Below are positions 5,960 through 25,422 of a stretch of DNA of 32,000 bases, in pieces. The stretch is from assembly GCA_041649575.1 (NCBI GenBank), contig JBAZMW010000003.1, forward strand, positions 150,001 to 182,000, written 5' to 3'. The notes beneath the pieces were generated by a model. The model was given only the letters and a program-made list of their open reading frames with translations. It did not search any database and was not told where the DNA came from. This DNA comes from Patescibacteria group bacterium. GTDB taxonomy: Bacteria; Patescibacteriota; Patescibacteriia; 2-01-FULL-39-33. Each line of letters starts with the position of its first letter. Within the stretch, counting starts at the first letter, position 1. The position numbers and the translations under genes were made by a program.

Positions 5960-5964
5960 AAAGC

Positions 5965-7227: not shown

Positions 7228-7229
7228 AG

Positions 7230-8552
7230 CTACTTTTCTAAATTTTTTCTAAGGTAGTCAACCAAATCCTTTTCGGATACTCTAGTCTGCTCCATGCTAT
7301 CGCGGTCGCGGACAGTGACTGTCCCCTTTTCCAACGTGTCAAAATCAACAGTGATGCAATAGGGTGTACCAATTTCATCTTGATAACGATAACGTTTACC
7401 GATATTGCCGCGATCATCAAAAAAAACATAAAAATTATTTTTCAACTTTTCATAAATCTCCCGCGCTTTTTTAACTAAATCCGGTTTGTTTTTCAGTAGT
7501 GGGAAAACCGCTGCTTTGTAAGGCGCCAGGGCCGGCTTAAACTTCAAAACCACGCGAGTCTCGCCACCGGCCAATTTTTCTTCTTGGTAAGCTTCGCCTA
7601 AAACGGCCAGCACTGTACGATCGACCCCAAAAGTAGGTTCGATTACATGGGCCAAATATTTCCGGCCCTCCTCTTCGGAAAAATATTCCAAATTCTCGCC
7701 GGAATATCCCTGATGCCGAGACAGGTCATAATCGGTGCGGTAGGCAATCGCCCACAACTCGTCCTGACCAAAAGGAAAGTCGTACTCTAAATCTATGGTG
7801 CGCTTGGAATAGAAAGCCCTCTCCTCGGCGGGAATTTCATGATTAAACATTTTTTTCTTATCCAGACCTATTTCTGCCATAAAACCGTACATCGACTGCA
7901 ACCATTCCTCAAAAATATTATTCCAAGCGCTAAAAGGAGAAATAAAATATTCAATTTCCATCTGTTCAAACTCAAAAGTACGAAAGATGAAATTGCCAGT
8001 GGTAATTTCGTTTCTAAAAGCCTTGCCGATCTGACCGATACCGAAGGGAATTTTTTTGTTGGTTGAGTTTAAAACGTTTTTATAATCGGCAAAAATAGCT
8101 TGAGCCGTCTCGGGACGAAGATAGACCGTCAACCCCTCTTCTTCTACGGCGCCAATGGTGGTTTTAAACAAACCACTAAATCTCTTTTCCGCCGTAAATT
8201 GTCCGCCGCAATTAGGGCACTTGGTGGCGTTGTCTAACTTATCGGGACGAAAACGCTGATGACACTTTTTGCACTCTACCAGAGGATCGGTGAAGTTGGC
8301 CACATGACCAGAGGCCTCCCAGACTTTTGGACTCAAGATGATACCGCCGTCGATTCCCGTCATATCTTCACGATCCTGAATAAAATACTTCCACCAGGAC
8401 TTTTTGATGTTATTTTTCAATTCGACTCCCAAGGGGCCGTAATCGTAAGCACTGGCCAGACCGCCGTAAATTTCGGAGTTAGGAAAAACAAAACCACGCC
8501 TTTTGCATAAAGCGACAATCTTATCCATTAAATCATTTTTATTTTTGGCCAT
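7230..8552 (-). CDS. glyQS: Glycine--tRNA ligase (dimeric class II, GlyQS type)
   Basis: N-terminus MAKNKNDLMDKIVALCKRRGFVFPNSEIYGGLASAYDYGPLGVELKNNIK and RPETAQAIF. The start is placed at the ATG at 8552; the track's longer ORF runs to 8606. Confidence 0.9.
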   Translation of the reverse strand: MAKNKNDLMDKIVALCKRRGFVFPNSEIYGGLASAYDYGPLGVELKNNIKKSWWKYFIQDREDMTGIDGGIILSPKVWEASGHVANFTDPLVECKKCHQRFRPDKLDNATKCPNCGGQFTAEKRFSGLFKTTIGAVEEEGLTVYLRPETAQAIFADYKNVLNSTNKKIPFGIGQIGKAFRNEITTGNFIFRTFEFEQMEIEYFISPFSAWNNIFEEWLQSMYGFMAEIGLDKKKMFNHEIPAEERAFYSKRTIDLEYDFPFGQDELWAIAYRTDYDLSRHQGYSGENLEYFSEEEGRKYLAHVIEPTFGVDRTVLAVLGEAYQEEKLAGGETRVVLKFKPALAPYKAAVFPLLKNKPDLVKKAREIYEKLKNNFYVFFDDRGNIGKRYRYQDEIGTPYCITVDFDTLEKGTVTVRDRDSMEQTRVSEKDLVDYLRKNLEK

Positions 8553-11186: not shown

Positions 11187-11636
11187 ATGAAAATAATCAA
11201 TAAAAACAAAGAGGGTCTGTTCAATTACCAGGTACTGGAAAACTTCGAGGCCGGCGTTGTTCTGACCGGCCCGGAAGTCAAATCGGTCAAGAGCGGACAG
11301 GTCAGTCTCAAGGGCAGTTATATTCGACTGGACAAAAATAATGAAGCCTGGCTGATAAATTGCCATATTTCTCCCTACCAACCGGCGGCCGGCAGTGTCA
11401 AAAATTATGAGCCAACCCAGCCGAGAAAACTGCTACTAAAAAAGAGGGAGCTGCTTTCGCTGGTGGGCAAAAGCAAGCAAAGCGGCTTGACAATTATACC
11501 AACCAGTGTATATACTAGAAAAAGATTAATTAAGGTGGGTCTGGCTCTGGCCAAAGGCAAACGAGAAATCGACAAACGCGAAACCATCAGAAAACGAGAA
11601 GCCGAGCGCCAGATCCAAAGAACCTTAAAAAGATAA
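11187..11636 (+). CDS. smpB: SsrA-binding protein SmpB
   Basis: NKNKEGLFNYQVLENFEAGVVLTGPEVKSVKSGQVSLKGSY matches the SmpB N-terminal signature. tmRNA follows immediately. Confidence 0.9.
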   Translation: MKIINKNKEGLFNYQVLENFEAGVVLTGPEVKSVKSGQVSLKGSYIRLDKNNEAWLINCHISPYQPAAGSVKNYEPTQPRKLLLKKRELLSLVGKSKQSGLTIIPTSVYTRKRLIKVGLALAKGKREIDKRETIRKREAERQIQRTLKR

Positions 11637-11667: not shown

Positions 11668-12059
11668 GGGGATGTTTTGATTCGATAGCTTGAAATAGCC
11701 AAGAGGCAGGCCGAGATTGGCAATTGCTCGTTAACTAACAGCCAAACATATAAGTGCCAAAAACTTATTAGCTAAAGTCAAAACTGCTTTTAGCGGTTTA
11801 GCTTTGGCGCCAGCTGTTGCCTAAACAGGCTTAACAGCCATCGCCTTGCCGACGCCTAATAGGCAAATAAGCGGTGTTATATTTTTAGGCTCGACCGGAA
11901 CCATAGTCTGGAGTTCTGGTTAAAATTTTGACCAGACCGTAGGCCGCCAGTGTTTTGCTTCTTTCCAATTGGCGGCTGAAACCCAAAGAAGCAAAAGCCT
12001 GTAAACCGCTGGGCCAATTTTACAGCTAGACAGGAGCTCATTACTCCTCATCTCCACCA
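11668..12059 (+). ncRNA. ssrA: tmRNA (SsrA)
   Basis: 5' ggggatg pairs with 3' catctcc-acca, including the G3:U identity pair. A gattcga box is present near the 5' end and a T-arm-like ggag-ctcatta-ctcc near the 3' end. The in-frame tag ORF ends ...GLALAPAVA-taa (stop at 11822-11824). It lies directly downstream of smpB. Confidence 0.85.
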
Positions 12060-12093
12060 AAAAAATAATCAACAGTCATAAAAAAACTACTTA

Positions 12094-12651
12094 ATGAGAA
12101 AAATTTTTCGGGGCAGAAACTTTCAAGCCGATAAAACTAAATTTTTTCGCGTTAACGAAAAAATCTTTGCCAAGGAAGTAATGGTGATTGACGAGCAGGG
12201 CCAAAAACTGGGTGTCTTGGACAAATGGCAGGCCTTGCAAGAAGCCAAAAACCGCGGCTTCGACCTAGTGGAAGTCTCACCCAAAGAAAACCCGCCGATT
12301 TGCAAAATCATGGATTATGGCAGTTTTAAGTATCAACAAAAAAAGAGTGAAAAAAAACAGCGGGCCAAAAATAAAACAACGGAAATAAAAACCATCAAAC
12401 TATCCAGCCGAATTAGCCAGCACGATACTGATTTCCGCGTCAATCAGGCGTTGAAATTCTTGGAAGAAAAAAATAAAGTTAAGATTGAGTTGCAATTGCG
12501 AGGCCGAGAAAACCAACATGCCGACCTGGCTCGAGAAATGCTGGGAAACTTCGTTAAGGAAGTCCGGCTGCGCCTGCCAGAAAACAGCTTGAAAGTGGAA
12601 CAAGAAGTCAAAAAACAAGGCGGCAATCTTTCCGCCATTATCTCTTCGTAA
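12094..12651 (+). CDS. infC: Translation initiation factor IF-3
   Basis: RVNEKIFAKEVMVIDEQGQKLGVL...GFDLVEVSPKENPPICKIMDYGSFKY. First gene of an infC-rpmI-rplT operon. Confidence 0.9.
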   Translation: MRKIFRGRNFQADKTKFFRVNEKIFAKEVMVIDEQGQKLGVLDKWQALQEAKNRGFDLVEVSPKENPPICKIMDYGSFKYQQKKSEKKQRAKNKTTEIKTIKLSSRISQHDTDFRVNQALKFLEEKNKVKIELQLRGRENQHADLAREMLGNFVKEVRLRLPENSLKVEQEVKKQGGNLSAIISS

Positions 12652-12672
12652 AAATAAAATTTAAAAGTTATT

Positions 12673-12876
12673 ATGCCTAAAAAAATAAAAACCAGACAAG
12701 CGGTCGCCAAAAGATTCAGAGTAACCAAAAAGAAGAAACTGATGAAAAGAACCGGCGGCCAGGATCATTTCAATGCCCGCGAGAGCGGCAAGACCAAGCG
12801 CGGTAAACGGCGTGACACTCAAATTGCCAAAGCCGACCGCAAAAATGTCCGGCAGTTTATGCCTTATAATTATTAA
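12673..12876 (+). CDS. rpmI: Ribosomal protein L35
   Basis: MPKKIKTRQAVAKRFRVTKKKKLMKR; 67 aa; operon position. Confidence 0.9.
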   Translation: MPKKIKTRQAVAKRFRVTKKKKLMKRTGGQDHFNARESGKTKRGKRRDTQIAKADRKNVRQFMPYNY

Positions 12877-12893
12877 TCTAATTTTAATTAACT

Positions 12894-13238
12894 ATGCCCC
12901 GGGTCAAACGAGGAGTAATTCATACTAAGAATCGCAACAATATTTTGCGCCGCACCAAAGGCTTTCAGGCCGGCCGCAAAAAACTTATCAAACTAGCCAA
13001 AACCGCAGCCACCAAGGCCGGCGCTTACGCTTACCGCGACAGAAAAACCAAAAAAAGAAACTTTCGTCGGCTTTGGCAAATTCAGCTTAATGCGGCCGCC
13101 CGAGAACACGGCTATTCTTACAGCCGGTTTATGGCCGGACTGAAGAAAAACAAGATCGAGCTCGATCGTAAAATCCTGGCTCAACTGGCTCAAAAAGAGC
13201 CCAAAATTTTTGCTCAAATAATAGAAAAGATAAAATAA
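12894..13238 (+). CDS. rplT: Ribosomal protein L20
   Basis: MPRVKRGVIHTKNRNNILRRTKGFQAGR...AYAYRDRKTKKRNFRRLW; 114 aa. Confidence 0.95.
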   Translation: MPRVKRGVIHTKNRNNILRRTKGFQAGRKKLIKLAKTAATKAGAYAYRDRKTKKRNFRRLWQIQLNAAAREHGYSYSRFMAGLKKNKIELDRKILAQLAQKEPKIFAQIIEKIK

Positions 13239-13247
13239 TTCTTCACT

Positions 13248-13283
13248 AAAACCGCGCCCTTTCTAAAGGGCGCGGTTTTTTTG
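13248..13283. terminator. Bidirectional terminator between rplT and the giant ORF
   Basis: aaaaccgcgccct-ttcta-aagggcgcggttttttt. Confidence 0.85.
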
Positions 13284-13296
13284 TAAATCAGAAAAT

Positions 13297-16200
13297 TTAA
13301 GCTGTCACTACCTTATCTTGTAAAGGCCGAACCGCCTCTATTACTTTTTTCAAGACAGCGGCGGGATTTTTACCGGCATAAGGAGCCGAGCGGCTGACCG
13401 CCTCGCCAGTGCCCCCCTGATGGCTGGCTTCCATCACCAGTTCGGCGGGGTTGATTCGGACATCGATATTACTCTCTGCCAAAGTAAACTGCAGGACACC
13501 TTTGGTCACCTTGGCCGCCGAGGCCTGGCCAGTTATACCGGCCTCAGAAAGAATCTTGGCAACTTCTTTGCTGGGAGCGGTGCCGGCTTCAACCAGTCTA
13601 GTTAACTTAACCCAGCTTTCAAGGTTTGGAGAGTTTAAGACTTCAGTACCGCTAATTAGCTTGCCAACCGCCGAGTCGGGAGCGACTTCTCCGCCAGCAA
13701 AAGTCAGAACCTTTTTGGCCAAATCGGCGCCATGACTTTCTACCAAACCGTTAAGCGTCTCGCCAGGAACAACTTTGGGGTTCCCGCTATAGAAACTAAC
13801 CACTTCTTTGGCCACACCCTTGACTCCCGATGATAAAATTTCGGCCGCTCGGCCTGGTTCAAGTCCGGCCTCATGCGCCTGACCCATCAGGTCGTAGGCG
13901 GACTGATCTAAACTGACACCAGAACCTTTGACCAAGCCGACTACCTGACGCAAATAAGCATTATTAGACTCTATTTGCGATAGAGTTTTCTCGCTTAGCT
14001 TGCCGGCGGCCTGTAAAACCTTTCCTGTATCACCGGTTTTCGGATCAAAAAAGGTGCTGGCCACTAATTCATTAAACTTATCATTACCGGCTAGTTTGGC
14101 CAGATCTTCAGGAGTGACATGATCGATATTAGCCGGTAAACCAAACTCGGTTGGACTTTTGGCAACCGCGTCTTTGATGGAATCAACCAAATAGGTAATC
14201 TTGCCTTCACGAAAGACAGGTAGCTTTTTGAGAGCTTCCGAAGTCATTTTACTAATATCTACATCCTTCGGCAGTCCAAGTTCGGCGGGATAGGTCTGGC
14301 CGCTTTCTATGGCCTTTTTGACTGTTGATCCGAGCGCTGCTTCGCATTTCTTTTCGATAACTCCCCAGACAGTATGCGAACCTTTAGCCTCAACTCCTTC
14401 GACGACTTCCAGCGCTTGCTCAAATTCAGTCAATTTTTCCGGCGCTTCCGGCCCAGGCGCGGTTTCCGTCGTGGCAGATTCTGCTGGCGCGGCACCTGGG
14501 GTATGTTCTGTTGGCGCACCGCCCGAAGCGGCTTCTGGCGCACCGGCGTCCGGCACTCGCGGAGCTCCTTCTGCTGGTGGGTTGCTCCCTTCAACTGTTG
14601 GTTGCTCTGCCGGCGCGGCGCCAGGAGTATGTTCTGCTGACGCTCCACCAGGAGCGGCTTCTGGCGCACCGGCGTCTAGAACTCGCTGAGCTCCTTCTGC
14701 TGGTGGCTGGCCTTCCGGCGAAACGCCGGCATGAGGGGCTTCCGCACCGCTTCCGCCGCTTCCGGCTTCAGCGGCGCCAGTGGCCGCGCCATGACCACGG
14801 AGCCATTGCCAAGGCTGAATACCGACAACCAGGCCAGCGGCGGCGGCTATCACGCCGCGTTGTATTTCTTTTCTTCTTTCAGCTCGGCCGGTTTGCTCTT
14901 CAGCTTGATGGGAAGTGCTAATATAAAAATCCAATTGATTAGACAAGGCATCGGCCAAAGAATAGCCGCTGGTATCAATGGCAGTCAATCTCTCCTCCAT
15001 TCTAGCCAAACTGGCTTGATACATTTGATCAATAACCGGCTTCATTCTATCGCCAAAAACATCTACTTGACGCTTGCCTTTTCTTTCGGCCAAGGCCGTT
15101 ATTCTGGCCAACTCTTCCTTTAAATCCTTATCGCTTAAACTTCCAAACTTTTTTTCTAACCAAGCTTTGGCAGCTTTAGGATCTTTCCTTTTCTCTTTAG
15201 CGTATTCTTTATAAATCTTCTGGGCTAATCCTTTATCTCCAAAACGTTTAGTAAATCTTTCCAGAGCGGCGTCAACACCCATGGCGGTACCGGTACCGCC
15301 AAGTATTCTTCTGGCAAAAAAGACAGCGGTCAGCAACGGCGCCGAAGCGGCGAAAGAAGTGGCAACGGCCGGAGTGGCCAAAGCCACAGCGGCTCCCAAC
15401 AAAGCGCCGGAAACAATCAGTCTGCCAGTGGCATGACGTTGCCACCATCCTTTAAGTCTTTCTCCTCTGCTTTTTTCCTTACCTTCAAACTCGGCCCAGA
15501 CTAGTTGGTTTTCCTTATCATACAAATCAACCAGTCCCTGAGCTAGACGATCTGGAAACATGGCCAGAGGACTAAGTTCACCGGTCTGTACTTTGGATCG
15601 GATCGACTCTTGCAAAGTCGCTTCATAAGAACGCCTTAACTGCTCTAACTTCTGCTCGCCCTTCTTGCCGCGGAATTCGGATTTGCCAATAAGTTTCATC
15701 CTCTCTCGCCTGGCTTGATAATAGGCCTTGCGGGCTTGATCTAGGGTTGGTTTGTCTTCTTCAGTCTCAATTATTATAGGTCCTTCACCAGTTTTATCTG
15801 ATGGAGGAAAAGGAGCGGCATCATCTTCCTCTTCATGAGACTTTAGTGTCGATTCTTCCGATTCATCTTCTAATTCATCTTCCGGCTTCTTTCCTGATTC
15901 CTCAAGCTCACGCACAAGACGTTCAGCCTCAGCTAGATCAAGAGGTGCTGACTCTGACTCTAATGGAGGCGCTATTAATTCCACATCAAGAACCGACTCA
16001 ATCCAAGTCGCGTATGCCTTATTATCGACAAAATTAAAGGTACGTATATAGGGTTTTTCTCCCTCTTCCACTAAACCAAGAAATTTTTCTTCATAGGTCG
16101 CTGATAAATAAGTGACTCTTATCATGCTCCCTGGCTTAATACCCCTAAATTTTTCCAAAAGTCTTTCTGTTCTTTCGGCCGGACTTTCCTCTGGCAACGG

Positions 16201-19143
16201 TGAAGGTCTTTCTGCTTCTTCGTCTGGATTTTCACCCGACTCCGGAGCTGGCGGCGGTGGAGGAGGGAGAACTTCCCCAGATAAATCCCCAAGCGGTGCT
16301 TCTGAATCATCTGGCCGCATCACTTCAACGCTCTCTATTCTATTGGTATTTTCTTGCCTGCCATCTTCAAAAAGCAACAGCATCCCGGCTGTGGTATCCA
16401 CCAATCCCCTGAAGTCTCCGATAAAACTCGATCCGTCCGTACAGACCCCTGCTAGTTTATCGCCAGGCTTACAACCGCGAAGTACTGCAAGTACTCTTTC
16501 TATTCTTTCTTTATCTTTTTTATCTTTATCTTCGGCGTCAGACTCTACCGGCGCAGGCCTAGGCGTTTCAACCGCCTCACTGGTCGCCGTCACCCTAGCT
16601 CTAACAATCTCGCCACCCGGCTTAGTAAAACCCATAGTAACAACCGCAGCAACTTTTAGATTACGGCCCTTGGGACCTTCAGTAAATGTAACCTCATGAT
16701 ACTTCTCATTAATATTATCGCCCAGCTGAACTAGCCAAAGTCTAAAACCAAAACTTTGCATTAACCCTGATAAATATCCGACTTTTGCGGTTTCAAAAAC
16801 GGGACCATTAACCGCATCACAATATTCTCTGCCAATTTCATCTACCAAAACTTGCACCGCGTGCTCTCTGCTTTCTGTTTCTATTTTGTCTTGTAATCCT
16901 CTAGCGCCAGCAGCTAGCTGTCTCATCCCCAAGGCTTCTGCTCTGCTAAGAATTGCTGAGAGCATGGCTTGCAGCTCTTGCTGTTCCGCGCTAAGCTCTG
17001 CTTCTGCTTTTTCGTCTCCTTTTGGTGTTTCTGGCGCCGGCTGTTCGATGGCCGGTGCTAACACCTCAATCTTTGTTATTAAAGAAAGAAGGATCTTTTT
17101 TGGCTTTAAGTCACTTGGTTTGCCTTTGATCTTTACGCGGTCACCTTCCACTCCATCAAAAAAGCCCTCTTCTTTCATTCCGCCCAAATCTACCAAAATC
17201 CTAGTGCCAAGCGGCAAATCTTTTAATTGATCGGCTGTTACTTCCCGTCCTGACTGCTTAGCGCCTAACCGCTCGGCTACCTCATTCATTATTTGCAAAG
17301 CACATTCCCGAACCAAACCTCTGGCGGTTTCTTCTTCGGCGCTTTCTTTTTTGGGCCGATAACGAGCCTCTTGGCCGGCTGCGTTTGCAGCTGTTCTAAA
17401 AAGAGTATTTTCTAAAGCAACCAAATCTTTAGGAAGAACTTTTTCTTCCTGCTCTGTCATGTTCTGGATGATTCTTTGTTTTGTTTCCTCTAAAGCCTTT
17501 TTGAAAGCAGGCAAAAATTTAGTCTCAGATTCACCACTTCCTTCTCCTTTTAATTCTTGATCTTTCGAGCCATTCACTTCGGCCATAATTTGCTCCGCGC
17601 ACGCGCTAACCAGATTTAGAACAGCCGGCTCCTCGGCATGCTTCCAGCCTTTTGTCGCCCTGATAGTTTTGTCGAGAATCGACTTTTCTAATTTATCTTT
17701 TTCTTCCGGCTTAATCCTTCTTCTCTCACTCTTCATTCTTTTGACTATCTCCTCTCGCGTCTGGTCTAATGCCTCTTTAAAAGCTTCCAAGAATGCCTCA
17801 AACTCATTTTTTTCCTCCCCCTTTCTGATAATTTCAGTGTCAATGCTTTCGCCAACCTCGCACTGGGCATTACCCTGTAATAGAATACGACAATTTTTGG
17901 CTTTTCTAATAGCCAGCTTAGCGCCATCCTCAACGACAAATCTGCTATCTGTCGCACTCTCGACTTCCATGGATATCCCGGCTCCGATCTTTTCTCTGCG
18001 CCTGTCGTTCATCTCTCTTCTTCTTACTGTTTTGAGCCCCGATCCTGGCTTTTCTTCTATAGATCCGCCATTCTTCCCGGTGGTATCAAGCTCGGCTTCA
18101 ATTTGTTCAGCGAAATTTTGGGATGCTTGGCGCACCAGGTCTTTTTCGGCTGCCGACTGCGCCTCCAAGCCGGTTTCTTTTTGGACGTCACGCTCAACTG
18201 TCCCAAAAAATATAGTTTTTTGCATATCATTGGCTTCTTGCGCATCATCAGCGCCAGCTCTAATTATGGTTATAAATTCTTGCCTTCTTCCATTTAAAAC
18301 CCTCTCAAAAACAGGCAAAAACCTGTCTCTAAATTCCGGTCTGATTTCTGGCGACTCGGCCGCTGGAGCCCCTCCTTTTATTTCTCCTTTAAACGCGGCA
18401 TGGGTTTCACGCAGCCCCTCTAATTCAGCTACAACTGCTTCTAACTCTTTATATAAAGGATTAAATTCATCTCTTAAAGCTTCTATATCTTCACCTATAC
18501 TCTCTAAAGCCTGCACACTAAAAACCTTATTTATTAAAAAACCCAAAAAACGTTCAATTATTTCAATCTCCTGATTAATGATTTTTTGAGCCCACTCCGG
18601 CTTGGCCTCTACCTTGGCCCTGACACTCGATAAAATAGTTTTGCCTTCAACTATGCCTGATCTCTCTTTGGCCGCGTTAACTTCTGCTCTAATTTGATCA
18701 AGAGCAATTTCGGCTTCTGCCGTCTCGGCCGGTGGCGGCGGGATTTCAACGCCAACTACGGGGAGATGTAATCCTAAAACTGATCTGGCATTATCAATAA
18801 CCCACCGAGCATTTGCCTTGTTGATTACTCCACCACGCCCTTCTTTCTTGAAAGTGTCAGACATATCCAAAATGTGCTCCAGTCCGGCTAAGAGCTCATC
18901 TAATTCCGGCGCCTGCAGGTCGGACAAATCGGACAAAGCATTAAAAGAATCTACAGCAGCCCTGAATTCTTCTACTTCTGGTTCCTTTCTTCCTGAAAGA
19001 TTAGTCTTTATTCTCAAAAGAGCCCTATTTATTCTTTTTCTTTTTTCCTTGTTCTCTTTTCTCTCGGCCTCTGTTGCCTCTCCTTCGGCTCCGGGCTCAA
19101 GCTCGTCTTCTTTGTCTGGAGTTTTTGGTTTATAATCTCCCAT
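13297..19143 (-). CDS. Giant (1,948 aa) modular membrane protein. About 1,240-aa acidic, helix-rich N-terminal region, a TM hairpin, a 145-aa loop, a third TM, a Pro/Ala-rich linker and a 380-aa C-terminal repeat domain
   Basis: Uninterrupted 5,847-nt ORF; all overlapping ORFs are short shadows. TM segments at about aa 1240-1262, 1265-1285 and 1430-1448. There is no N-terminal signal peptide. Internal protein repeats and a GrpE-like segment are described in the findings. Confidence 0.85.
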   Translation of the reverse strand: MGDYKPKTPDKEDELEPGAEGEATEAERKENKEKRKRINRALLRIKTNLSGRKEPEVEEFRAAVDSFNALSDLSDLQAPELDELLAGLEHILDMSDTFKKEGRGGVINKANARWVIDNARSVLGLHLPVVGVEIPPPPAETAEAEIALDQIRAEVNAAKERSGIVEGKTILSSVRAKVEAKPEWAQKIINQEIEIIERFLGFLINKVFSVQALESIGEDIEALRDEFNPLYKELEAVVAELEGLRETHAAFKGEIKGGAPAAESPEIRPEFRDRFLPVFERVLNGRRQEFITIIRAGADDAQEANDMQKTIFFGTVERDVQKETGLEAQSAAEKDLVRQASQNFAEQIEAELDTTGKNGGSIEEKPGSGLKTVRRREMNDRRREKIGAGISMEVESATDSRFVVEDGAKLAIRKAKNCRILLQGNAQCEVGESIDTEIIRKGEEKNEFEAFLEAFKEALDQTREEIVKRMKSERRRIKPEEKDKLEKSILDKTIRATKGWKHAEEPAVLNLVSACAEQIMAEVNGSKDQELKGEGSGESETKFLPAFKKALEETKQRIIQNMTEQEEKVLPKDLVALENTLFRTAANAAGQEARYRPKKESAEEETARGLVRECALQIMNEVAERLGAKQSGREVTADQLKDLPLGTRILVDLGGMKEEGFFDGVEGDRVKIKGKPSDLKPKKILLSLITKIEVLAPAIEQPAPETPKGDEKAEAELSAEQQELQAMLSAILSRAEALGMRQLAAGARGLQDKIETESREHAVQVLVDEIGREYCDAVNGPVFETAKVGYLSGLMQSFGFRLWLVQLGDNINEKYHEVTFTEGPKGRNLKVAAVVTMGFTKPGGEIVRARVTATSEAVETPRPAPVESDAEDKDKKDKERIERVLAVLRGCKPGDKLAGVCTDGSSFIGDFRGLVDTTAGMLLLFEDGRQENTNRIESVEVMRPDDSEAPLGDLSGEVLPPPPPPAPESGENPDEEAERPSPLPEESPAERTERLLEKFRGIKPGSMIRVTYLSATYEEKFLGLVEEGEKPYIRTFNFVDNKAYATWIESVLDVELIAPPLESESAPLDLAEAERLVRELEESGKKPEDELEDESEESTLKSHEEEDDAAPFPPSDKTGEGPIIIETEEDKPTLDQARKAYYQARRERMKLIGKSEFRGKKGEQKLEQLRRSYEATLQESIRSKVQTGELSPLAMFPDRLAQGLVDLYDKENQLVWAEFEGKEKSRGERLKGWWQRHATGRLIVSGALLGAAVALATPAVATSFAASAPLLTAVFFARRILGGTGTAMGVDAALERFTKRFGDKGLAQKIYKEYAKEKRKDPKAAKAWLEKKFGSLSDKDLKEELARITALAERKGKRQVDVFGDRMKPVIDQMYQASLARMEERLTAIDTSGYSLADALSNQLDFYISTSHQAEEQTGRAERRKEIQRGVIAAAAGLVVGIQPWQWLRGHGAATGAAEAGSGGSGAEAPHAGVSPEGQPPAEGAQRVLDAGAPEAAPGGASAEHTPGAAPAEQPTVEGSNPPAEGAPRVPDAGAPEAASGGAPTEHTPGAAPAESATTETAPGPEAPEKLTEFEQALEVVEGVEAKGSHTVWGVIEKKCEAALGSTVKKAIESGQTYPAELGLPKDVDISKMTSEALKKLPVFREGKITYLVDSIKDAVAKSPTEFGLPANIDHVTPEDLAKLAGNDKFNELVASTFFDPKTGDTGKVLQAAGKLSEKTLSQIESNNAYLRQVVGLVKGSGVSLDQSAYDLMGQAHEAGLEPGRAAEILSSGVKGVAKEVVSFYSGNPKVVPGETLNGLVESHGADLAKKVLTFAGGEVAPDSAVGKLISGTEVLNSPNLESWVKLTRLVEAGTAPSKEVAKILSEAGITGQASAAKVTKGVLQFTLAESNIDVRINPAELVMEASHQGGTGEAVSRSAPYAGKNPAAVLKKVIEAVRPLQDKVVTA
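14486..14706 (-). repeat. In-frame tandem duplication, period 126 nt (42 aa), inside the giant ORF
   Basis: The 95-nt cores at 14486-14580 and 14612-14706 align with scattered substitutions. They encode PPAEGA[QP]RV[LP]DAGAPEAA[PS]GGA[SP][AT]EHTPGAAPAE twice. Confidence 0.9.
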
Positions 19144-19168
19144 ATAAATTAATTATTTTTATAATCAA

Positions 19169-19486
19169 TTATTTTAAATTCTCGCGCCAAGCCGCGACAT
19201 CGCCGGCCAGCTGTTCTTTGAAATTGGTGACCTCTTCCAAAATTATCGCCTGCAGATCAACCTTGCCGTTCAAAAACTGTCCGATTTCTTCGTCGGAGAC
19301 GCCTTTGGCGGTGAGTTTGTCAAACTCCAACTGATCCGGCTCGGAGAACTCATCCATCAGACGGAAAGAAACGCGGTCGCTAACCACCTCGTTTAGTTTG
19401 GTGAGTAAAACTTGTTTTTTGGCTTCATCCAGGTTTTCCAGGCCCAAAATGTTGAAAACATTCTGATCCAAAAAGAGTAAATTCAT
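19169..19486 (-). CDS. Small acidic helical protein, hypothetical; first gene of the giant-ORF operon
   Basis: 105-aa ORF, 25 nt upstream of and co-oriented with the giant ORF. Its pattern (LGLENLDEAKKQVLLTKLNEVV...) resembles small conserved CPR proteins, but I cannot name the family with confidence. Confidence 0.6.
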   Translation of the reverse strand: MNLLFLDQNVFNILGLENLDEAKKQVLLTKLNEVVSDRVSFRLMDEFSEPDQLEFDKLTAKGVSDEEIGQFLNGKVDLQAIILEEVTNFKEQLAGDVAAWRENLK

Positions 19487-19574
19487 AAATTTTATTTATT
19501 TTTTATTGTTAATTATTGAATTTTGTTTAAAATAACAGTATTCCAGCTAGAGCTTAATCTGGCTGTCTGAATAT

Positions 19575-19603
19575 ATTATACCAAACAAAGAGAATTGGTG
19601 AAA
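19575..19603 (-). promoter_or_regulatory. Candidate promoter of the operon containing the small acidic protein and the giant ORF
   Basis: On the minus strand: TTTCAC, a 17-nt spacer, then TGgTATAAT (extended -10; TATAAT = 19575-19580). Confidence 0.5.
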
Positions 19604-19703
19604 GGGTGGCAAAATAAATAATTATTAACTAATTTTATTTATACTTTTTGGCTAAAATTAGATAATATTCTTGATAAAAAAGAAGCTTTTTTCTCAACTA
19701 CTA

Positions 19704-19732
19704 TTGACAAATTATTTATGGTATGCTATAAT
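19704..19732 (+). promoter_or_regulatory. Consensus promoter P_A (TTGACA-17-TATAAT with TGc extended -10)
   Basis: ttgaca at 19704-19709, tataat at 19727-19732, spacer exactly 17 nt. 31/34 identical to the promoter at 27944-27972 (minus). Confidence 0.75.
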
Positions 19733-19817
19733 GAGTAGTTCGGTAAGTAACCGAAAGCACATCACAAAGGCAGCCCTGGTAATGACACCGGGGTTCGCAA
19801 GAGAAAAGGAGAAGACG

Positions 19818-20798
19818 ATGGGTACGGACACAGGAATAGAGGACGATGTGGTGATTATTGGTGAGGACACCGGCATCGCTGACACCGGCATCGCTGACAC
19901 AAAGACGAGTCGGCCGAAGCGTAAAGTCGGAATCTGGCGGATCGTGCTGGGCCTGATCGGCCTGGCGCTCATCGCCTTCGCGGCATTGACCGCGTACGGC
20001 CTGATCGTCAAGACCGACGCGATTGACCGGCGTGTCGTCGTGCTGGAAAATCGCGTCGACGGTTTCGACGAACGCATCAAGGCCGGTGACGAGGCGGTCG
20101 AGGACATCTCCAAAGCCACCGACGATCTGTGGAGGCGAATGGCGAATGTCGAGAAACGCTTCGACAAGGATGGAGAATTCGCGAAGACCGTGGCCGCGGT
20201 TGCCAAGACCGCCGAAGACGTGACGGCGCTGCAAGCCGCGGTCGATGAAATCCCCGATGCCATGGCCGAGGCCACAGCTGGAATCGAAGGCCGGGTCAAA
20301 GCCCTCGAAGACGGCGCCGCGCAGGCACAGGAGAGGGCCAGCCGCGAGCTCCTGATGCTCAAGGTTGCCGAGATCCGCCGCGCGAATCCGGCGAGCGATG
20401 TCAGCGCCATGAGCGACGCGGACATTGGCAAGACGCTGGCTGGCAAGGGCGGCAACGATTTTCGCAAGAAGATTGAGGCCGCATACGTCAGCCTCGGAGC
20501 CAAGCCTGTCGTCACGGCACCAGCTCCGGCTCCAGCACCGGCACCAGCGCCAGCGGTAAATCTGGCTGAGGTAGAACGCCGGCTGGACGCGGCCGAGAAA
20601 GAAGTAAAACTTGTCGGGCAAGCCGCCAAAACCTTGGCGACGAATCCTGACAAGCCGAAGCACCTGGTGCGTGGCGCCAAGGCGAGGGCGCTCAAGCTGT
20701 TGGTGGATGTCCCCGACGACTTGCCACCCGCCTCCGCAAGACCGGCATCCCCGAAGAAGGACAACGTCATCCGGCCGGAGTTCGGGGACCGGCCGTAA
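19818..20798 (+). CDS. GC-rich hypothetical single-pass membrane protein with a long Ala/Glu-rich helical ectodomain (cassette A)
   Basis: AAGGAG (19806-19811) lies 6 nt before ATG 19818. The longer track ORF from 19671 would start upstream of the promoter. TM IWRIVLGLIGLALIAFAALTAYGLIV. Contains a DTGIA-DTGIA tandem (15-nt repeat at 19866-19895) and an (AP)6 tract (20518-20556). Confidence 0.7.
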   Translation: MGTDTGIEDDVVIIGEDTGIADTGIADTKTSRPKRKVGIWRIVLGLIGLALIAFAALTAYGLIVKTDAIDRRVVVLENRVDGFDERIKAGDEAVEDISKATDDLWRRMANVEKRFDKDGEFAKTVAAVAKTAEDVTALQAAVDEIPDAMAEATAGIEGRVKALEDGAAQAQERASRELLMLKVAEIRRANPASDVSAMSDADIGKTLAGKGGNDFRKKIEAAYVSLGAKPVVTAPAPAPAPAPAPAVNLAEVERRLDAAEKEVKLVGQAAKTLATNPDKPKHLVRGAKARALKLLVDVPDDLPPASARPASPKKDNVIRPEFGDRP

Positions 20799-20831
20799 CA
20801 CGTACCTTTGATCGCGCACCTCGTGCGTTAG

Positions 20832-20870
20832 CCCCCCCAGACTCTGGCAGTTTCATAGAGTCTGGGGGGT
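20832..20870 (+). terminator. Long hairpin after cassette A
   Basis: 13-bp perfect stem: ccccccagactct (20833-20845) / agagtctgggggg (20857-20869). The T-run is weak and delayed (gaattatttt). Confidence 0.6.
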
Positions 20871-20902
20871 GAATTATTTTAGAGAGATTTTGCTTTTATA
20901 TA

Positions 20903-20931
20903 TTGACTAAACAAGACAAAACTGATAAAAT
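20903..20931 (+). promoter_or_regulatory. Promoter driving the structured GC-rich leader plus tRNA-Asp
   Basis: TTGACT (20903-20908), a 17-nt spacer, then TGaTAAAAT (taaaat = 20926-20931). Confidence 0.65.
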
Positions 20932-20947
20932 TATTTTTGATATTTAT

Positions 20948-21254
20948 GGATTACTGCCCCCGCCAGAATGACTCTGTCGGGCTGGCGCCCGACTGAACGG
21001 CGTTCAGCCGTTCGGGCGGGGCTCAGTCTTGCCCCGTAGAATACTGCTAAAGCAGTAGCGCCAGAGGCGCTATTCTACGGGGTGAAGTTAGAGCGCTCCC
21101 CCTGTCACGGAAGAGGGTCGCCGTAGGCGACGGGCAGAAGCGAGCCATGAGCAAAGCGAATGAAACGAGCGTAGATGAATGCGACCATGGGAGCATTCGG
21201 CTCTGCCAGGAAACATCGGGTGCAACCCGCGACCGTCAAACTTTTTACAAGTTA
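20948..21254 (+). other. Degenerate tRNA-Asp-derived duplicate interrupted by GC-rich, highly base-paired inserts (candidate structured RNA or decayed element)
   Basis: It starts with the same atatttatggatt as the true tRNA-Asp 5' flank and 5' end. Positions 21087-21121 copy the tRNA D/anticodon arm (1 substitution, 2 one-nt insertions). There is a T-arm-like cgggtgcaacccg at about 21216-21228. It contains multiple perfect hairpins. Confidence 0.6.
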
Positions 21255-21262
21255 ATATTTAT

Positions 21263-21336
21263 GGATTGGTAGCTCAGTTGGTTAGAGCGCTCCCCTGTCA
21301 CGGGAGAGGTCGCGGGTTCGAGTCCCGTCCAGTCCG
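21263..21336 (+). tRNA. tRNA-Asp (anticodon GUC)
   Basis: Acceptor ggattgg/ccagtcc (one G:U pair), D arm gctc-agttggtta-gagc, anticodon arm ctccc-ctgtcac-gggag, T arm gcggg-ttcgagt-cccgt. Confidence 0.9.
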
Positions 21337-21347
21337 CTGGATAAAAC

Positions 21348-21377
21348 AAAAATCACCCTTGCGGTGATTTTTGTTTT
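21348..21377 (+). terminator. Terminator after tRNA-Asp
   Basis: aaaaatcacc-cttgc-ggtgattttt followed by gtttt. Confidence 0.75.
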
Positions 21378-21514
21378 ACTACACGAAGTGGAGAGGGGCT
21401 CGAACGGGTTGGCAGCGAGGCAAATCCGAAGGATGCAGCCGAGCGTCAAAAATTGCGAGCTGGCGCAGCAATTTTTGCCAACCCAGGACAGAGTGAGCAA
21501 AGCGAACGCCGAGA

Positions 21515-21531
21515 AGTCCCGTCCAGTCCGC
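21515..21531 (+). repeat. Exact 17-bp copy of the tRNA-Asp 3' end (att-like direct repeat)
   Basis: agtcccgtccagtccgc at 21515-21531 is identical to 21321-21337 within, and just past, the tRNA. Confidence 0.9.
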
Positions 21532-21541
21532 ATTTTTCTAG

Positions 21542-21565
21542 TCAGCCCCAAGTGGGCTGATTTTT
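21542..21565 (+). terminator. Second plus-strand terminator, directly after the duplicated tRNA 3' end
   Basis: tcagccc-caagt-gggctga followed by ttttt. Confidence 0.7.
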
Positions 21566-21640
21566 GAGAATAAAAAAGAGCGGCGATCCACACGACGGTG
21601 AATCTCCCGCTCTACAATGTCCTGATAGCCTTTCAGCGGT

Positions 21641-22369
21641 TTATCCTCTGCCACCGCCGACCAGTGCGCGTAACGCGTTGAACATGCCATCAGCCACTTG
21701 TGTCCTTCGCGTATCCATGGACTCAAGCATGGCATCGATCCTGTCGAAGCCGTCTCGACCGTACTCAAGAAGTGTTGGGCCATAGAATAGCCGCGTGAAC
21801 AGTTCATTACCGACAAAACTCCATTCGGTGTAAGGCGTCTCTGAGTAACCGTCAGAGTTGTCGTGGATGTCGAAAACCCTGTTGGTGTGCGTACCGGCGA
21901 TGAGAATATCGCCACCCTCGACTTGTCCGGTTACAGTCACCAACGCCTGTTGAAGCCTCTCCATAAAATACTCCTGGTACCACTCCCTGACTTTCGTCAG
22001 GACAATGTTTCTCGATTCCTCCGGAAGATTGGTGACAATGTGCCCGGTCTGCCTCGGACTGAGCCTGACCATCGAGTTGCTGCTCAACTTGTCCAAGAAC
22101 ACGCCCAGACCGATGTTCAACCAGAGGCCATCCGTGAGGTTGAGAATGGGAGAGTTGATGATAAAGATGTGTGTCCTAGCTTGATCTGGGTCCTGGGCAA
22201 TTCGACGAATGACCTCCAGTCCGTCTTGTTGGTTGAGACAAAGGTGGGGACGAAAACAGCTTTCTTTCGCTTGCACTAGGGCAGCAATTCCCCTGTTAAG
22301 ATCCTGGTGCAACTGTGACCGGTCGTCAAAGTCAACCAGTAGGGTGTGGCTTTTCTTCTGATCCGACAT
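21641..22369 (-). CDS. GC-rich hypothetical cytoplasmic protein (cassette B), 242 aa
   Basis: GAGGAG lies 6 nt before ATG 22369. No TM segment. The N-terminal half alternates beta/alpha like a Rossmann/receiver-type fold (TLLVDFDD ... HIFIINSPILNLTDGLW), but this is only a weak resemblance. Hairpin plus T-run terminator at about 21572-21613 (minus). Confidence 0.65.
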   Translation of the reverse strand: MSDQKKSHTLLVDFDDRSQLHQDLNRGIAALVQAKESCFRPHLCLNQQDGLEVIRRIAQDPDQARTHIFIINSPILNLTDGLWLNIGLGVFLDKLSSNSMVRLSPRQTGHIVTNLPEESRNIVLTKVREWYQEYFMERLQQALVTVTGQVEGGDILIAGTHTNRVFDIHDNSDGYSETPYTEWSFVGNELFTRLFYGPTLLEYGRDGFDRIDAMLESMDTRRTQVADGMFNALRALVGGGRG

Positions 22370-22412
22370 ATTCTTCTCCTCGATGTTGACCAAAGAATGT
22401 ACGATTGTTAAA

Positions 22413-22441
22413 AAGGTATACTAAATTAAGTATTTTGTCAA
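22413..22441 (-). promoter_or_regulatory. Candidate promoter of cassette B
   Basis: On the minus strand: TTGACA (22436-22441), a 17-nt spacer, then TACCTT (22413-22418). The -10 is weak. Confidence 0.35.
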
Positions 22442-22471
22442 ATACTAAAACATAATAACTCATTATTACTA

Positions 22472-22500
22472 TTGACAAGCCTAATATCTTGTGCTAAACT
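22472..22500 (+). promoter_or_regulatory. Promoter of cassette C (TTGACA-17-TGcTAAACT)
   Basis: ttgaca at 22472-22477, taaact at 22495-22500. Shares the upstream tactattgaca with the promoters at 19704 and 27972. Confidence 0.65.
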
Positions 22501-22579
22501 TACCAGTTATCGATTTTGAGTCAGTACTTTGTGTAGAGCACGACAAACCGGTTCCGTGACATGAACAGGAGGACGACCA

Positions 22580-22957
22580 GTGAAAAACCACAATAGTTAT
22601 GCCACTTACCAACCGAGCGACCAGCGGCTTCGCGAAGCCGACCACTGGGAGGTCTGGGATAAGCTACCGCCCGAGCTCAAGTTTGAGGCAGTGGCGGCTC
22701 GCGACCCCTCTCTGACCGCTCTGTGTGCCCGAGACAAGGGCGTGTACGTCTGGGTATTCCCGCACGCTGTACCTTCGGTCCAAAGTGGCATTGGACCATT
22801 CATGGCTCTAGGGTCGCGACGCGGCAAGGATCGCATGGACTTCATCGTGACAACTCCTTCGGCGGATGACCCCATCGCGTTCGCCAAAGCCGAGAATGCG
22901 AGAAAGCTGAGGGAGCTGTCAAAGGGCGCCAAGGGTCCGAAGAACCATCAGAAATGA
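22580..22957 (+). CDS. GC-rich hypothetical protein (cassette C), 125 aa
   Basis: AGGAGG lies 7 nt before GTG 22580. No TM segment and no recognisable motif. Weak hairpin terminator at 22995-23025. Confidence 0.6.
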   Translation: MKNHNSYATYQPSDQRLREADHWEVWDKLPPELKFEAVAARDPSLTALCARDKGVYVWVFPHAVPSVQSGIGPFMALGSRRGKDRMDFIVTTPSADDPIAFAKAENARKLRELSKGAKGPKNHQK

Positions 22958-23114
22958 GATGGGCGGTCGTCAAAGCCGCTACCGTCTCAACAACGCCGCA
23001 TCAGCTACCTGGTGCGGCCGTTTTAAATAATAATTTTGTTATACAGATACCAAAAGAGTTAATTTCCATCCACTCCAGAGTCCTCCGCCTAAGCTAAAGT
23101 TTTGGCGGACAAGT

Positions 23115-23190
23115 AAAACCTGCCTTGACTCGCGTCAGGCCTGGCGTCGCCGAAGGCTATGCCAAAGGCGCGTGAGGCAGGTCGTCCCGC
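23115..23190 (+). repeat. GC-rich intergenic element, copy X
   Basis: aaaacctgccttgactc...gaggcaggtcgtcccgc. The outer stem cctgcc (23119-23124) / ggcagg (23176-23181) encloses short GC hairpins. Homologous to 24196-24243. Confidence 0.6.
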
Positions 23191-23304
23191 AAGTCTCGGC
23201 AAAATAAACTCAGGACTCAATCACTTCCAAATCAATAAAATTTGCAAAAAGCGCTTTATATTTGATATAATAAAAACACGACTTAAAAAATAATTTATCT
23301 AACT

Positions 23305-23508
23305 ATGCAAAAAATAGCTACAAGCATCTTTATCTTCGCGTCAATTGTTTTCGGCGTTATAGGAATTTTAGTAGTTTTAACAATGCCAGGACCCGGCAGA
23401 ACGAATTCGGATCTGAATGAATTATTTATTAGGCTTCTGTTCGCGACTGCCTTTATTATACTGCCTTCATTTGCATTAAGCATCGCCGGTAAGTATCTAA
23501 AAAAATAG
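23305..23508 (+). CDS. Small two-TM membrane protein, hypothetical (AT-rich)
   Basis: 67-aa ORF with two hydrophobic helices. Upstream: TTGCAA, an 18-nt spacer, then TGaTATAAT (23242-23271). No SD. Confidence 0.5.
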   Translation: MQKIATSIFIFASIVFGVIGILVVLTMPGPGRTNSDLNELFIRLLFATAFIILPSFALSIAGKYLKK

Positions 23509-23745
23509 ATTCCGATTTTAAACTTCCTTAGTCCAGTCTTTATATCAGATGTTCTTCTTTTTTTAATTCCATTGGAATATCAACAATACCCCCGTGCTCT
23601 TAAAAAATTTACAATCTCAAAATTAATAAAAAAATCCCCATCAATGGGGGTATTTTTATTTTCTGTCTTCTCTGGCGCCTATAATTACTGCCGCTATTAC
23701 CAAAATTGTTAAAACCATAACTCCAAACAACATCATACCAAAATT

Positions 23746-24117
23746 TTACTTAATCTGTTTTTTCTTTTTAAACCAGCCGACGAGAAACAAGATGCCGATC
23801 AAAAACGCGACGCCGGAAAATTGTGCCGCCCATAATAATAAATACCACTCGAATTGATTTCTCGCTAGCGCGGCCAGATACAACGCGCCAGCTAAAATAA
23901 AAATAGTTCCCCCAACAATTTCATATTTCCAAGAGATTATCAGAATAACCAGCAGCACCAAGGCGGGAATATTGTGCATGAACAAACCGACAACCGTTCC
24001 CCAGAAACCCAGCTTCATATCGAAAATGTCCAGCGAAAACAACATCAAAAACAAAATAAACAAAATCGACAATATCCTTGGAATCCAATATATAAATCTA
24101 TTAACATTATTCCTCAT
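23746..24117 (-). CDS. Four-TM membrane protein, hypothetical (AT-rich)
   Basis: 123-aa ORF with four hydrophobic segments and a Lys-rich C-terminus. An extended -10 TGgTATAAT (24155-24163, minus) lies upstream. Confidence 0.65.
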   Translation of the reverse strand: MRNNVNRFIYWIPRILSILFILFLMLFSLDIFDMKLGFWGTVVGLFMHNIPALVLLVILIISWKYEIVGGTIFILAGALYLAALARNQFEWYLLLWAAQFSGVAFLIGILFLVGWFKKKKQIK

Positions 24118-24195
24118 ATTTATTGTTTTATTTATATAATCAGTCTTTGAGTTTATTATACCACTTCCTGCCCGTCTCGCCCAATCCGGAATTTT

Positions 24196-24243
24196 AAAAC
24201 CCGCCCCGACTCAACGAGGCTGGTGCGAGGCAGGTTGTCCCGC
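24196..24243 (+). repeat. GC-rich intergenic element, copy Y
   Basis: aaaacccgccccgactc (14/17 vs X) and gaggcaggttgtcccgc (16/17 vs X). The cctgcc (24167-24172) / ggcagg pairing is retained. Confidence 0.6.
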
Positions 24244-24419
24244 GGTCAGAACAGCTGCCGGTCGGCGCCAAGGCGGCTGCTTTAAAAATTTTAATTTTTT
24301 GCAAGCTGCACCAATGAATGTTAAAAATATTTCTTAAAAATAAATCAACCTTAAAATTTCTGGTAAATGAAAAAGGCCACCGCGACGTGCGATGGGCCTG
24401 TAGTCACTTCGCCACCTGT

Positions 24420-25199: not shown

Positions 25200-25379
25200 G
25201 GGCGTCAAGCCTCCTTCAAAAGTCACTCTCGCTGCTCTGGCAATCTGTCGTTACCGCCAGAAACCCAGAAATCCCTCTCGTCTATAAACCACATAAAGAA
25301 CGGTTCCAGTTCATCGATCGCGTCGCTCCAAACGTCCTAATATTAAACGTTCAATCTCCCTTGTGTTGGAGAATAAATT

Positions 25380-25408
25380 ATTTTATTATATAAATTCCTT
25401 TTTGTCAA
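25380..25408 (-). promoter_or_regulatory. Promoter of cassette F
   Basis: On the minus strand: TTGACA (25403-25408), a 17-nt spacer, then TAAAAT (25380-25385). A second TTGACA lies 7 nt further upstream. It predicts a leader of about 170 nt. Confidence 0.55.
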
Positions 25409-25422
25409 CTGTCAAATTTTCT

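Follow-up and report, generated by a model that had tools for sequence, protein, structure and literature searches.

The described proteins closest in build to the one studied here are the envelope-spanning MapZ/LocZ of streptococci and the RodZ-type landmarks, the RsgI anti-sigma factors of clostridia, which are co-transcribed with sigI, and the proteins of the TonB/VirB10 type, whose setting differs from that of the Patescibacteria, a group regarded as monoderm. Patescibacteria account for a large part of the diversity of bacteria, and few genes are kept without reason in their tiny genomes. Their cell envelope is the compartment that decides division, wall upkeep and contact with other cells. 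The locus described here lies in a 32,000-nucleotide (nt) stretch of DNA from a Patescibacteria group bacterium (contig JBAZMW010000003.1, positions 150,001 to 182,000), referred to below as the window. It consists of a very long open reading frame (ORF), the giant, and a small partner gene immediately upstream of it. By homology, the giant is an unusually long member of a family of proteins with three predicted transmembrane (TM) segments.

The giant and its family

The main parts of the locus are as follows (aa, amino acids; pI, isoelectric point).

13297..19143, minus strand: giant ORF with ATG start, 1,948 codons and a stop; product of 1,948 aa, 211 kDa, pI 5.1
15772..19143, minus strand: N-terminal region, aa 1-1124, acidic, probably cytoplasmic, without a detectable relative
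14749..15771, minus strand: family core, aa 1125-1465, with a basic helical lead-in, a hydrophobic hairpin, a helical loop of ~135 aa and the third TM segment (TM3); pI 9.7
14434..14799, minus strand: linker rich in Pro, Ala, Gly and Glu, aa ~1449-1570; 16% Pro, 26% Ala
13300..14433, minus strand: C-terminal domain, aa 1571-1948 (378 aa), predicted to be extracytoplasmic; from the family alignment and an AlphaFold model
19169..19486, minus strand: partner gene for a 105-aa acidic DUF5663 protein, pI 4.3; ends 25 nt upstream of the giant ATG

To retrieve relatives, aa 749-1948 of the giant were compared exhaustively with 1.84 billion cluster representatives by phmmer. The search gave 45 relatives with lengths of 197-1,731 aa, of which 28 had E-values (E) of 1e-10 or below. 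Judged from these alignments, the last ~820 residues of the giant are a member of an undescribed family restricted to Patescibacteria. All relatives are annotated as 'hypothetical' and come from metagenome-assembled genomes (MAGs) of Patescibacteria; the named relatives and loci are those of Nomura-, Campbell-, Doudna- and Komeilibacteria, 'Parcubacteria' and 'Patescibacteria group'. The common architecture consists of a variable N-terminus, the core, a Pro-rich linker, a conserved piece called C1 and an optional extension, and the core was found in 38 of the 46 proteins (the giant and its 45 relatives). The features that define the family are all present in the giant, namely the core module, the Pro-rich linker with C1 and an adjacent DUF5663 gene on the same strand. 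The closest full-length relative, P0047 (1,162 aa), is 37% identical in the core and 36% in the C-terminal domain, and has an unrelated N-terminus. An earlier note on this DNA, made from the sequence alone, had regarded the domain combination as an unfamiliar one-off. This view has to be given up for the last ~820 residues, and only the ~1,125 N-terminal residues are unique.

Pfam found no domain in any of the 46 proteins. The giant, whole or in slices, gave no significant match to Pfam, NCBIfam, PHROGs, PADLOC or PDB sequences, and a Pfam search of eight slices at E ≤10 returned sub-threshold noise only. The absence of an enzyme, adhesin or secretion-system domain, as stated in the earlier note, was thus borne out in these five collections, and no characterised family took up most of the length in the profile searches. 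The family was revealed because an exhaustive search was used. In a word-index homology search the full giant retrieved only itself and the core alignment retrieved nothing, the index apparently being swamped by low-complexity words. A metagenome scan with the giant alone gave no relative, and a literature search for 'Patescibacteria giant protein' gave nothing relevant.

The DUF5663 partner

Profile comparisons identify the 105-aa partner as a DUF5663 protein. Compared directly with Pfam PF18908 it scored 18.6 bits (E 0.0028), just short of the cut-off of 23.7 bits, and a precomputed annotation lists PF18908.7; its length, its conserved positions and its occurrence as a free-standing protein are those of DUF5663. 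It aligned over its full length with 14 partners from related loci at 21-57% identity, and one of these, from locus L003, passed the PF18908 cut-off with 32.7 bits. A profile of 15 partners matched the window partner at E 2.8e-35, and the window copy was found again in a profile search at E 9e-29.

Adjacency was counted with hidden Markov models (HMMs) for DUF5663, the core and the C-terminal domain, run on all ORFs of all fetched loci. In 15/15 related loci holding upstream DNA, a DUF5663 gene was located upstream on the same strand, which answers the question of adjacency raised in the earlier note. Since L023 and L016 encode the same protein cluster, these loci represent 14 independent cases. 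The gap between the two genes was 9-35 nt in 11/15 loci and ~200 nt in L024, and the rest of the neighbourhood varied among the loci. In all 111 clusters DUF5663 is a protein of ~100 aa that stands alone, and with a mean column identity of 49% it is the best-conserved part of the cassette. Searches of the paper library for DUF5663 and PF18908 returned no paper, function or structure, and its constant pairing with the three-TM family was not found described. New here are the family and the pairing; DUF5663 (PF18908) was already named, and is a name only.

The earlier note had also placed the two genes in one transcription unit. As a prediction this holds. The 25-nt gap between them contains no terminator-like site, a candidate operon promoter is present ~90 nt upstream of the partner ATG, and together with the constant adjacency these features argue for co-transcription.

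19575..19602, minus strand: promoter-like site TTCACC-16 nt-TATAAT with TG extension; consensus match only, 10/12

The mean net charge was -6.9 for the partners and +8.0 for the cores, and in the window the corresponding pI values are 4.3 and 9.7. Such charge complementarity would fit a contact between DUF5663 and the core.

Some loci depart from the simple two-gene order. In L015 (1587-1766) and L018 (5596-5763) a highly charged helical ORF of 55-59 aa, without a counterpart in the window, is located between DUF5663 and the large gene. In L012, DUF5663 is followed head to tail by a 466-aa ORF (2485-3885) and a 1,456-aa family ORF (3900-8270), which may be a giant of ~1,900 aa split by a stop codon or frameshift. 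Divergent DUF5663 paralogs directly follow other proteins in L020, L021 and L022. In L020 (5207-7291) and L022 (5751-7294), and also in L002 (15820-17363), they are found between fusA and tuf, after a soluble protein of 417-596 aa. In L021 the 885-aa protein belongs to the family as a divergent member (match to core HMM positions 8-167, E 7.5e-12, filters off). The soluble 417-aa protein of L022 gave the best non-family match to the lead-in HMM, a borderline E of 0.011 among 1,600 ORFs, and the 596-aa protein of L020 stayed at noise level. The borderline match of the 417-aa protein suggests that DUF5663 may recognize the lead-in motif.

Membrane core and topology

The segments of the core predicted to lie in the membrane are listed below.

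15274..15420, minus strand: hydrophobic helical hairpin, aa 1242-1290 (TM1 and TM2, or re-entrant); Kyte-Doolittle peaks 2.06 and 1.71
14800..14856, minus strand: TM3, aa 1430-1448, predicted signal-anchor; Kyte-Doolittle 1.31

Hydropathy peaks at aa 1242-1260, 1259-1282 and 1430-1448 agree with the hairpin and third TM segment described previously. The loop between them, reported as a basic loop of 145 aa, is present as well, and proved to be only slightly basic (27 K/R vs 23 D/E). The lead-in is marked by the motif L..AR..Y ... R..Y (two R..Y helices), the sequence after the hairpin by G.GT..G.EA.LE and that before TM3 by ER.K...R. In an alignment of aa 1125-1465 with 32 relatives the near-invariant residues R14, Y17, Y49, R117, R154, G178, G181, R299 and R305 are kept in the giant, which matched the family core HMM at E 2.6e-93. 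Mean column identity of the core across the family is 31%. The hydrophobic stretch of the hairpin has a median length of 39 aa in the family, is rich in Gly and Ala, contains a near-invariant Arg and has positive charge on both flanks.

The topology was read from Kyte-Doolittle hydropathy and positive-inside counts over 33 aligned family cores. The 15 residues before the hairpin contain 5.3 K/R vs 0.9 D/E, and the 20 residues after it 3.8 K/R vs 2.8 D/E. The 15 residues before TM3 contain 4.8 K/R vs 3.3 D/E, and the 15 residues after it 1.2 K/R vs 1.6 D/E. By the positive-inside pattern the N-terminus and the loop would be cytoplasmic, and the linker and C-terminal domain would be outside. The N-in/C-out orientation of the earlier note is therefore retained as a prediction, with charge flanks that fit it family-wide.

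An AlphaFold2 model of the core, built from the family alignment, was all-alpha with a predicted local distance difference test score (pLDDT) of 85.9 and a predicted template modelling score (pTM) of 0.81. In this model TM2 and the helix into TM3 extend far into the cytoplasmic part. A Foldseek search of the PDB with the core model gave no significant neighbour (best E 2). Two candidate identities for the core were rejected: annexin, from a profile match to the loop at E 0.034, and the ClyA-family pore-forming toxins (SmhA, AhlB and YaxA), from Foldseek matches at E 6-7; none of these matches was significant.

Linker and C-terminal domain

The following features were recognized beyond TM3.

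14480-14706: tandem duplication in the linker, 126 base pairs (bp), 1.8 copies, 86% DNA matches; two Pro/Ala-rich units of 42 aa with 30/42 residues identical
13912..14268, minus strand: C1, aa ~1626-1744, a piece of the ectodomain of ~120 aa with motifs TY.IDAIKD, FGL..NID and LS.E...NI..NN; common to nearly all family members
13381..13512, minus strand: five-stranded beta-sheet subdomain, aa ~1878-1921; DSSP on the AlphaFold model

The composition of aa ~1449-1570 confirms the Pro/Ala-rich linker of the earlier note. Linkers in the family have a median length of 41 aa (range 25-226) and ~16% Pro; that of the giant is 137 aa. The tandem duplication shows that this stalk was recently lengthened by duplication.

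In the subfamily of the giant, C1 is followed by an extension of ~200 aa. The AlphaFold2 model of the C-terminal domain (pLDDT 91.7, pTM 0.78) contains ~17 helices, followed by a five-stranded sheet and two helices. Foldseek returned nothing significant from the PDB (best E 0.68, a polo-box domain) or from BFVD (best E 0.09). This part of the protein had been described as ~380 aa of degenerate helical repeats, a description at odds with the model, in which a conserved domain is compactly folded and includes a beta-sheet subdomain. The first of the quoted 'repeats' (AELGLPKDVDISKMTSEALKKL) falls in a 31-aa insertion in C1 that is not found in the closest relative.

A relationship to transcription activator-like (TAL) effectors was considered and rejected. 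The likeness resides in the C1 motif (LTP.DL..L..N..F and LS.E...NI..NN), which aligns with LTPEQVVAIASNNGGKQALE. The summed E-value, 2.7e-20, is artefactual, since it adds up many identical weak repeats, with at least 10 near-identical weak matches, the best single repeat having E 0.6 and the others 2-180. In contrast to TAL effectors, the giant has at most two copies of the motif and no array of 33-35-aa repeats. C1 showed no tandem repeat at the DNA or protein level, the second TAL effector-like motif forms one continuous helix in the AlphaFold model, and no TAL effector structure was among the 50 Foldseek PDB matches listed for the C-terminal model. A LysM domain, seen by eye at the start of C1 (HTV..G..W.I.E..L), was likewise discarded; no LysM match was given by Pfam in the 46 members, and the model has coil and a long helix without strands at this position.

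N-terminal region

Repeated elements were found in two parts of the N-terminal region.

17212..17859, minus strand: internal repeat of ~92 aa, aa 429-545 vs 522-644, E 1e-10 (BLASTP, fragments vs the whole protein)
16024..17196, minus strand: region aa 650-1040 with three modules of ~60-70 aa, B1-B3; beta-rich in appearance, by eye

The earlier note had this region as acidic and preceded by no signal peptide. Both points hold: the N-terminus is hydrophilic, and aa 1-1124 contain 226 D/E vs 162 K/R (pI 4.8). The internal ~92-aa repeat gave sub-threshold Pfam matches only (HHD_RTEL1 and FliG_C). A pairwise comparison within the giant matched B2 (aa 856-916) with B3 (aa 975-1026) at E 7e-6, and no Pfam or PDB match was found for aa 650-1040. 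A GrpE-like beta domain, suspected by eye at aa ~790-850, had no support from PDB or Pfam.

As far as tested, the N-terminal ~1,125 residues appear to be an orphan. Of these, aa 749-1124 were covered by the exhaustive search and aa 1-748 by the word-index search, comparison with the relatives, Pfam and PDB. In the exhaustive search with aa 749-1948 no relative aligned below query position ~300 (aa <1050), and slices of the region gave no Pfam or PDB matches. The N-termini of the relatives range from ~90 to ~1,050 aa, are all acidic (14-27% D/E) and are unrelated to that of the giant. Those of P0010, P0020, P0023, P0030, P0033 and P0036 have one or two copies of a well-conserved, cytoplasmic repeat of ~95 aa (LL.YLNKARQ..VE.E.VY ... 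AAHDL.EYLA.EAE) without a Pfam match. This repeat was looked for in the giant and is not present there.

Integrity of the gene

The giant ORF is a genuine gene. It occupies 18.3% of the window, and with the base composition of the window a stop-free run of 1,948 codons has a chance of ~1e-48. The identical protein is present in NCBI, JGI, ENA and Logan; the NCBI entry, from a contig of 191,558 bp, is 'MAG: hypothetical protein WC518_03165 [Patescibacteria group bacterium]'. A contig of 8,985 bp in the Logan assembly of run SRR8542065 corresponds to window 12031-21015 with 0 mismatches. As the two assemblies are identical base for base, the ORF is not the product of one assembler, and the uninterrupted reading frame of 5.8 kb reported earlier is confirmed. 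That the ORF arose by misassembly or by fusion of two genes, or is a pseudogene in decay, is scarcely credible in view of these results. Such an artefact could be suspected from the tandem duplication inside the linker and from the 1,125 N-terminal residues without relatives. However, the 126-bp duplication is the only repeat in the ORF that could trouble an assembler, and its copies, being only 86% alike, can be told apart. The order of N-terminus, core, linker and ectodomain is also found within one ORF in the relatives, the N-termini of which reach 1,048 aa.

Genomic neighbourhood

The window is an ordinary Patescibacteria chromosome. It contains relA/spoT, parAB, tRNA genes and genes for a GT4 glycosyltransferase, an M16 peptidase, a class II aminoacyl-tRNA synthetase and an AI-2E transporter, and further smpB with tmRNA, infC, rplT, lgt and pyruvate kinase. 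rplT and the giant gene are convergent. The smpB gene (11187-11636) is directly followed by the tmRNA gene (11668-12059), which scored 111.6 bits with Rfam and was not reported by ARAGORN.

The divergent neighbour of the cassette, 19671-20798 on the plus strand, encodes a coiled-coil protein that has one TM segment, an (AP)7 linker and no more than weak matches to coiled coils of the EzrA/PspA type. At 19704-19732 a perfect TTGACA-17-TATAAT indicates that the true start of this gene gives a shorter version of 326 aa. Long spurious antisense ORFs run across 19671-20798 because of its GC content of 60%. GC content is patchy across window 20000-28000 (0.385-0.60), and several ORFs in this part have no family match and several have predicted membrane helices. 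A gene for a DUF7670 membrane protein is located at 23746-24117 (minus strand) and a T4SS_pilin gene (PF18895) at 25476-25991 (minus strand). In L016, four T4SS_pilin genes are found within 4 kb of the cassette. PF18895 is one profile used for retrieving VirB2-like pilins in Patescibacteria (PMC12102498). Most loci of the Nomurabacteria type have a gene for a UvrD/PcrA helicase downstream of the family gene and KsgA further downstream. Neither this helicase nor the VirD4/TraG-like ATPase seen in some related loci is encoded near the giant in the window.

Proposed role and alternatives

The best explanation, still a tentative one, is that the giant spans the envelope as a non-enzymatic tether or scaffold and that DUF5663 completes it on the cytoplasmic side. 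The N-terminal ~1,125 residues of the giant, acidic and built from repeats, would stay in the cytoplasm. The basic helical bundle would lie on the inner face of the membrane, held there by the hydrophobic hairpin and the third TM helix. TM3 would act as an internal signal-anchor and export the Pro/Ala-rich stalk, probably long enough to span the cell wall, together with a compact, conserved and mostly helical ectodomain. In this way the giant, as a tether or scaffold, could physically link something cytoplasmic with the wall or cell surface. The acidic DUF5663 would be a fixed partner, bound to the bundle and the basic lead-in next to the membrane, and the variable N-terminal repeats may provide a lineage-specific docking surface or length. 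From its architecture, a scaffold role is the most likely for the giant. Several points weigh against it. 'Scaffold' is the default reading for a protein without catalytic motifs and not a positive finding. Anionic lipids, and not DUF5663, could equally be what the basic core binds. A scaffold would not usually have its variable part in the cytoplasm and its conserved part outside, and the reading does not account for this arrangement. Finally, the hairpin, being short and rich in Gly and Ala and having a near-invariant Arg, may be re-entrant and not twice-spanning, although this would leave the side of the C-terminus unchanged.

A transmembrane sensor is an unlikely but serious alternative. 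Its ectodomain would detect an external cue (wall state, host surface or ligand) and signal through TM3 and the bundle, with binding or release of DUF5663 as the output, in a logic like that of RsgI/sigma-I or anti-sigma partner switching. Conservation of the ectodomain and the juxtamembrane bundle would suit this role, as would the small cytoplasmic partner, which is encoded in the same predicted operon and tightly conserved. The DUF5663 paralogs that also pair with soluble proteins, one of these with the borderline lead-in match, would fit a reusable binding module. Neither the giant nor DUF5663 has a histidine kinase, GGDEF, helix-turn-helix, sigma or anti-sigma domain, however, DUF5663 is acidic and an unlikely DNA binder, and the huge variable N-terminal region would be left without a role. 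It is rather improbable that an episymbiont uses the giant for adhesion or attachment to its host, with a stalk presenting the C-terminal domain to the host cell surface and a cytoplasmic part that only anchors. The predicted external position of this domain on a long Pro/Ala-rich stalk, lengthened by duplication in the giant, speaks for attachment, as does the view that Patescibacteria are widely host-dependent (PMC12102498). In the family, though, the external C1 is conserved across Nomura-, Campbell-, Doudna- and Komeilibacteria and the cytoplasmic N-terminus changes fast, which is the reverse of host-specific adhesins. Repeat adhesins (Ig-like, cadherin, RTX and RHS) and surface proteins with a Sec signal were rejected, as Pfam gave no match even on slices at E ≤10 and the hydrophilic N-terminus has no signal peptide.

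It is doubtful that the giant serves a type IV secretion apparatus, or a translocation apparatus based on a coupling protein, as an accessory component in the membrane. A gene for a VirD4/TraG-like ATPase of 911-943 aa (DUF8128, DUF87/HerA and TraG-D_C, mostly weak matches) is located directly beside the family gene in L002 (10272-13046), L011 (2129-4960) and L021 (1509-4244), and T4SS_pilin genes are found within ~6 kb in the window and ~4 kb in L016. No such ATPase is encoded in the window or in most related loci, virB4 was not seen near any copy in the window or the examined loci, and no Pfam model for type IV secretion systems (T4SS) matched any of the 46 members, so that VirB6, VirB8, PrgH, PrgL and other components were rejected as identities. 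A further point against it is that Patescibacteria have ~2 VirD4-like genes per genome, mostly unlinked to virB4 (PMC12102498). The boldest reading, a distinctly remote one, is that DUF5663 and the three-TM protein form an unrecognized envelope-spanning machine found throughout Patescibacteria, with new folds on either side of the membrane, possibly capturing external polymers together with the VirD4-like ATPase or UvrD helicase encoded beside the family gene in many relatives. The ectodomain with its two TAL effector-like helix-loop motifs would then capture DNA or a wall or host glycan. If true, such a machine would be an uptake or attachment route for nucleotide-auxotrophic cells, unlike the known competence and secretion systems. 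A phage tape-measure-like protein with a small chaperone in a prophage remnant is effectively refuted. There is a superficial likeness in the great length of the giant, in its hydrophobic hairpin and in the acidic protein of ~100 aa encoded before it, and tape-measure proteins were among the non-significant BFVD matches (E 1.4-1.7, probability ≤0.06). PHROGs nevertheless gave 0 matches for the giant and its partner, and the neighbours are housekeeping genes (infC, rplT, tRNA-Asp) that vary between loci, without capsid, portal or terminase genes. PADLOC gave 0 matches for both proteins, and a known anti-phage defence system was likewise rejected.

Comparison with known systems

The results provide a family definition, domain boundaries, a partner protein and a predicted topology for a two-gene DUF5663 cassette that is retained in several Patescibacteria lineages and has a membrane protein of up to 1,948 residues. 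Both conserved domains were modelled with confidence and have no PDB neighbours, nor, for the ectodomain, BFVD neighbours, which makes them well-defined 'dark matter' of the envelope. As Patescibacteria have many uncharacterised families, the three-TM family is a solid lead and not a surprise.

Its build can be compared with that of three types of protein. Like MapZ/LocZ and the RodZ-type landmarks, the giant has no catalytic domain and is predicted to run from an N-terminal domain in the cytoplasm through a membrane anchor and a flexible linker to a C-terminal domain outside the cell. In contrast to them, it has three hydrophobic helices instead of one, a far larger and variable cytoplasmic part and an obligatory small partner gene, and no similarity to them in sequence or fold was detected. 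RsgI resembles the cassette in being encoded in a two-gene operon, where a small protein of the cytoplasm is paired with a membrane protein that has an external domain and a linker rich in Pro and Thr. However, the partner of the giant is a 105-aa acidic protein and not a sigma factor, and the giant has no anti-sigma or carbohydrate-binding domain. As in the TonB/VirB10 type, an extended Pro-rich segment after an N-in membrane anchor takes a C-terminal domain across the envelope, but homology is lacking and the window contains no ExbBD-like or T4SS partner. On the sequence evidence the family is not a detectable member of the MapZ/RodZ, RsgI or TonB/VirB10 types, and is a new family on a familiar architectural theme.

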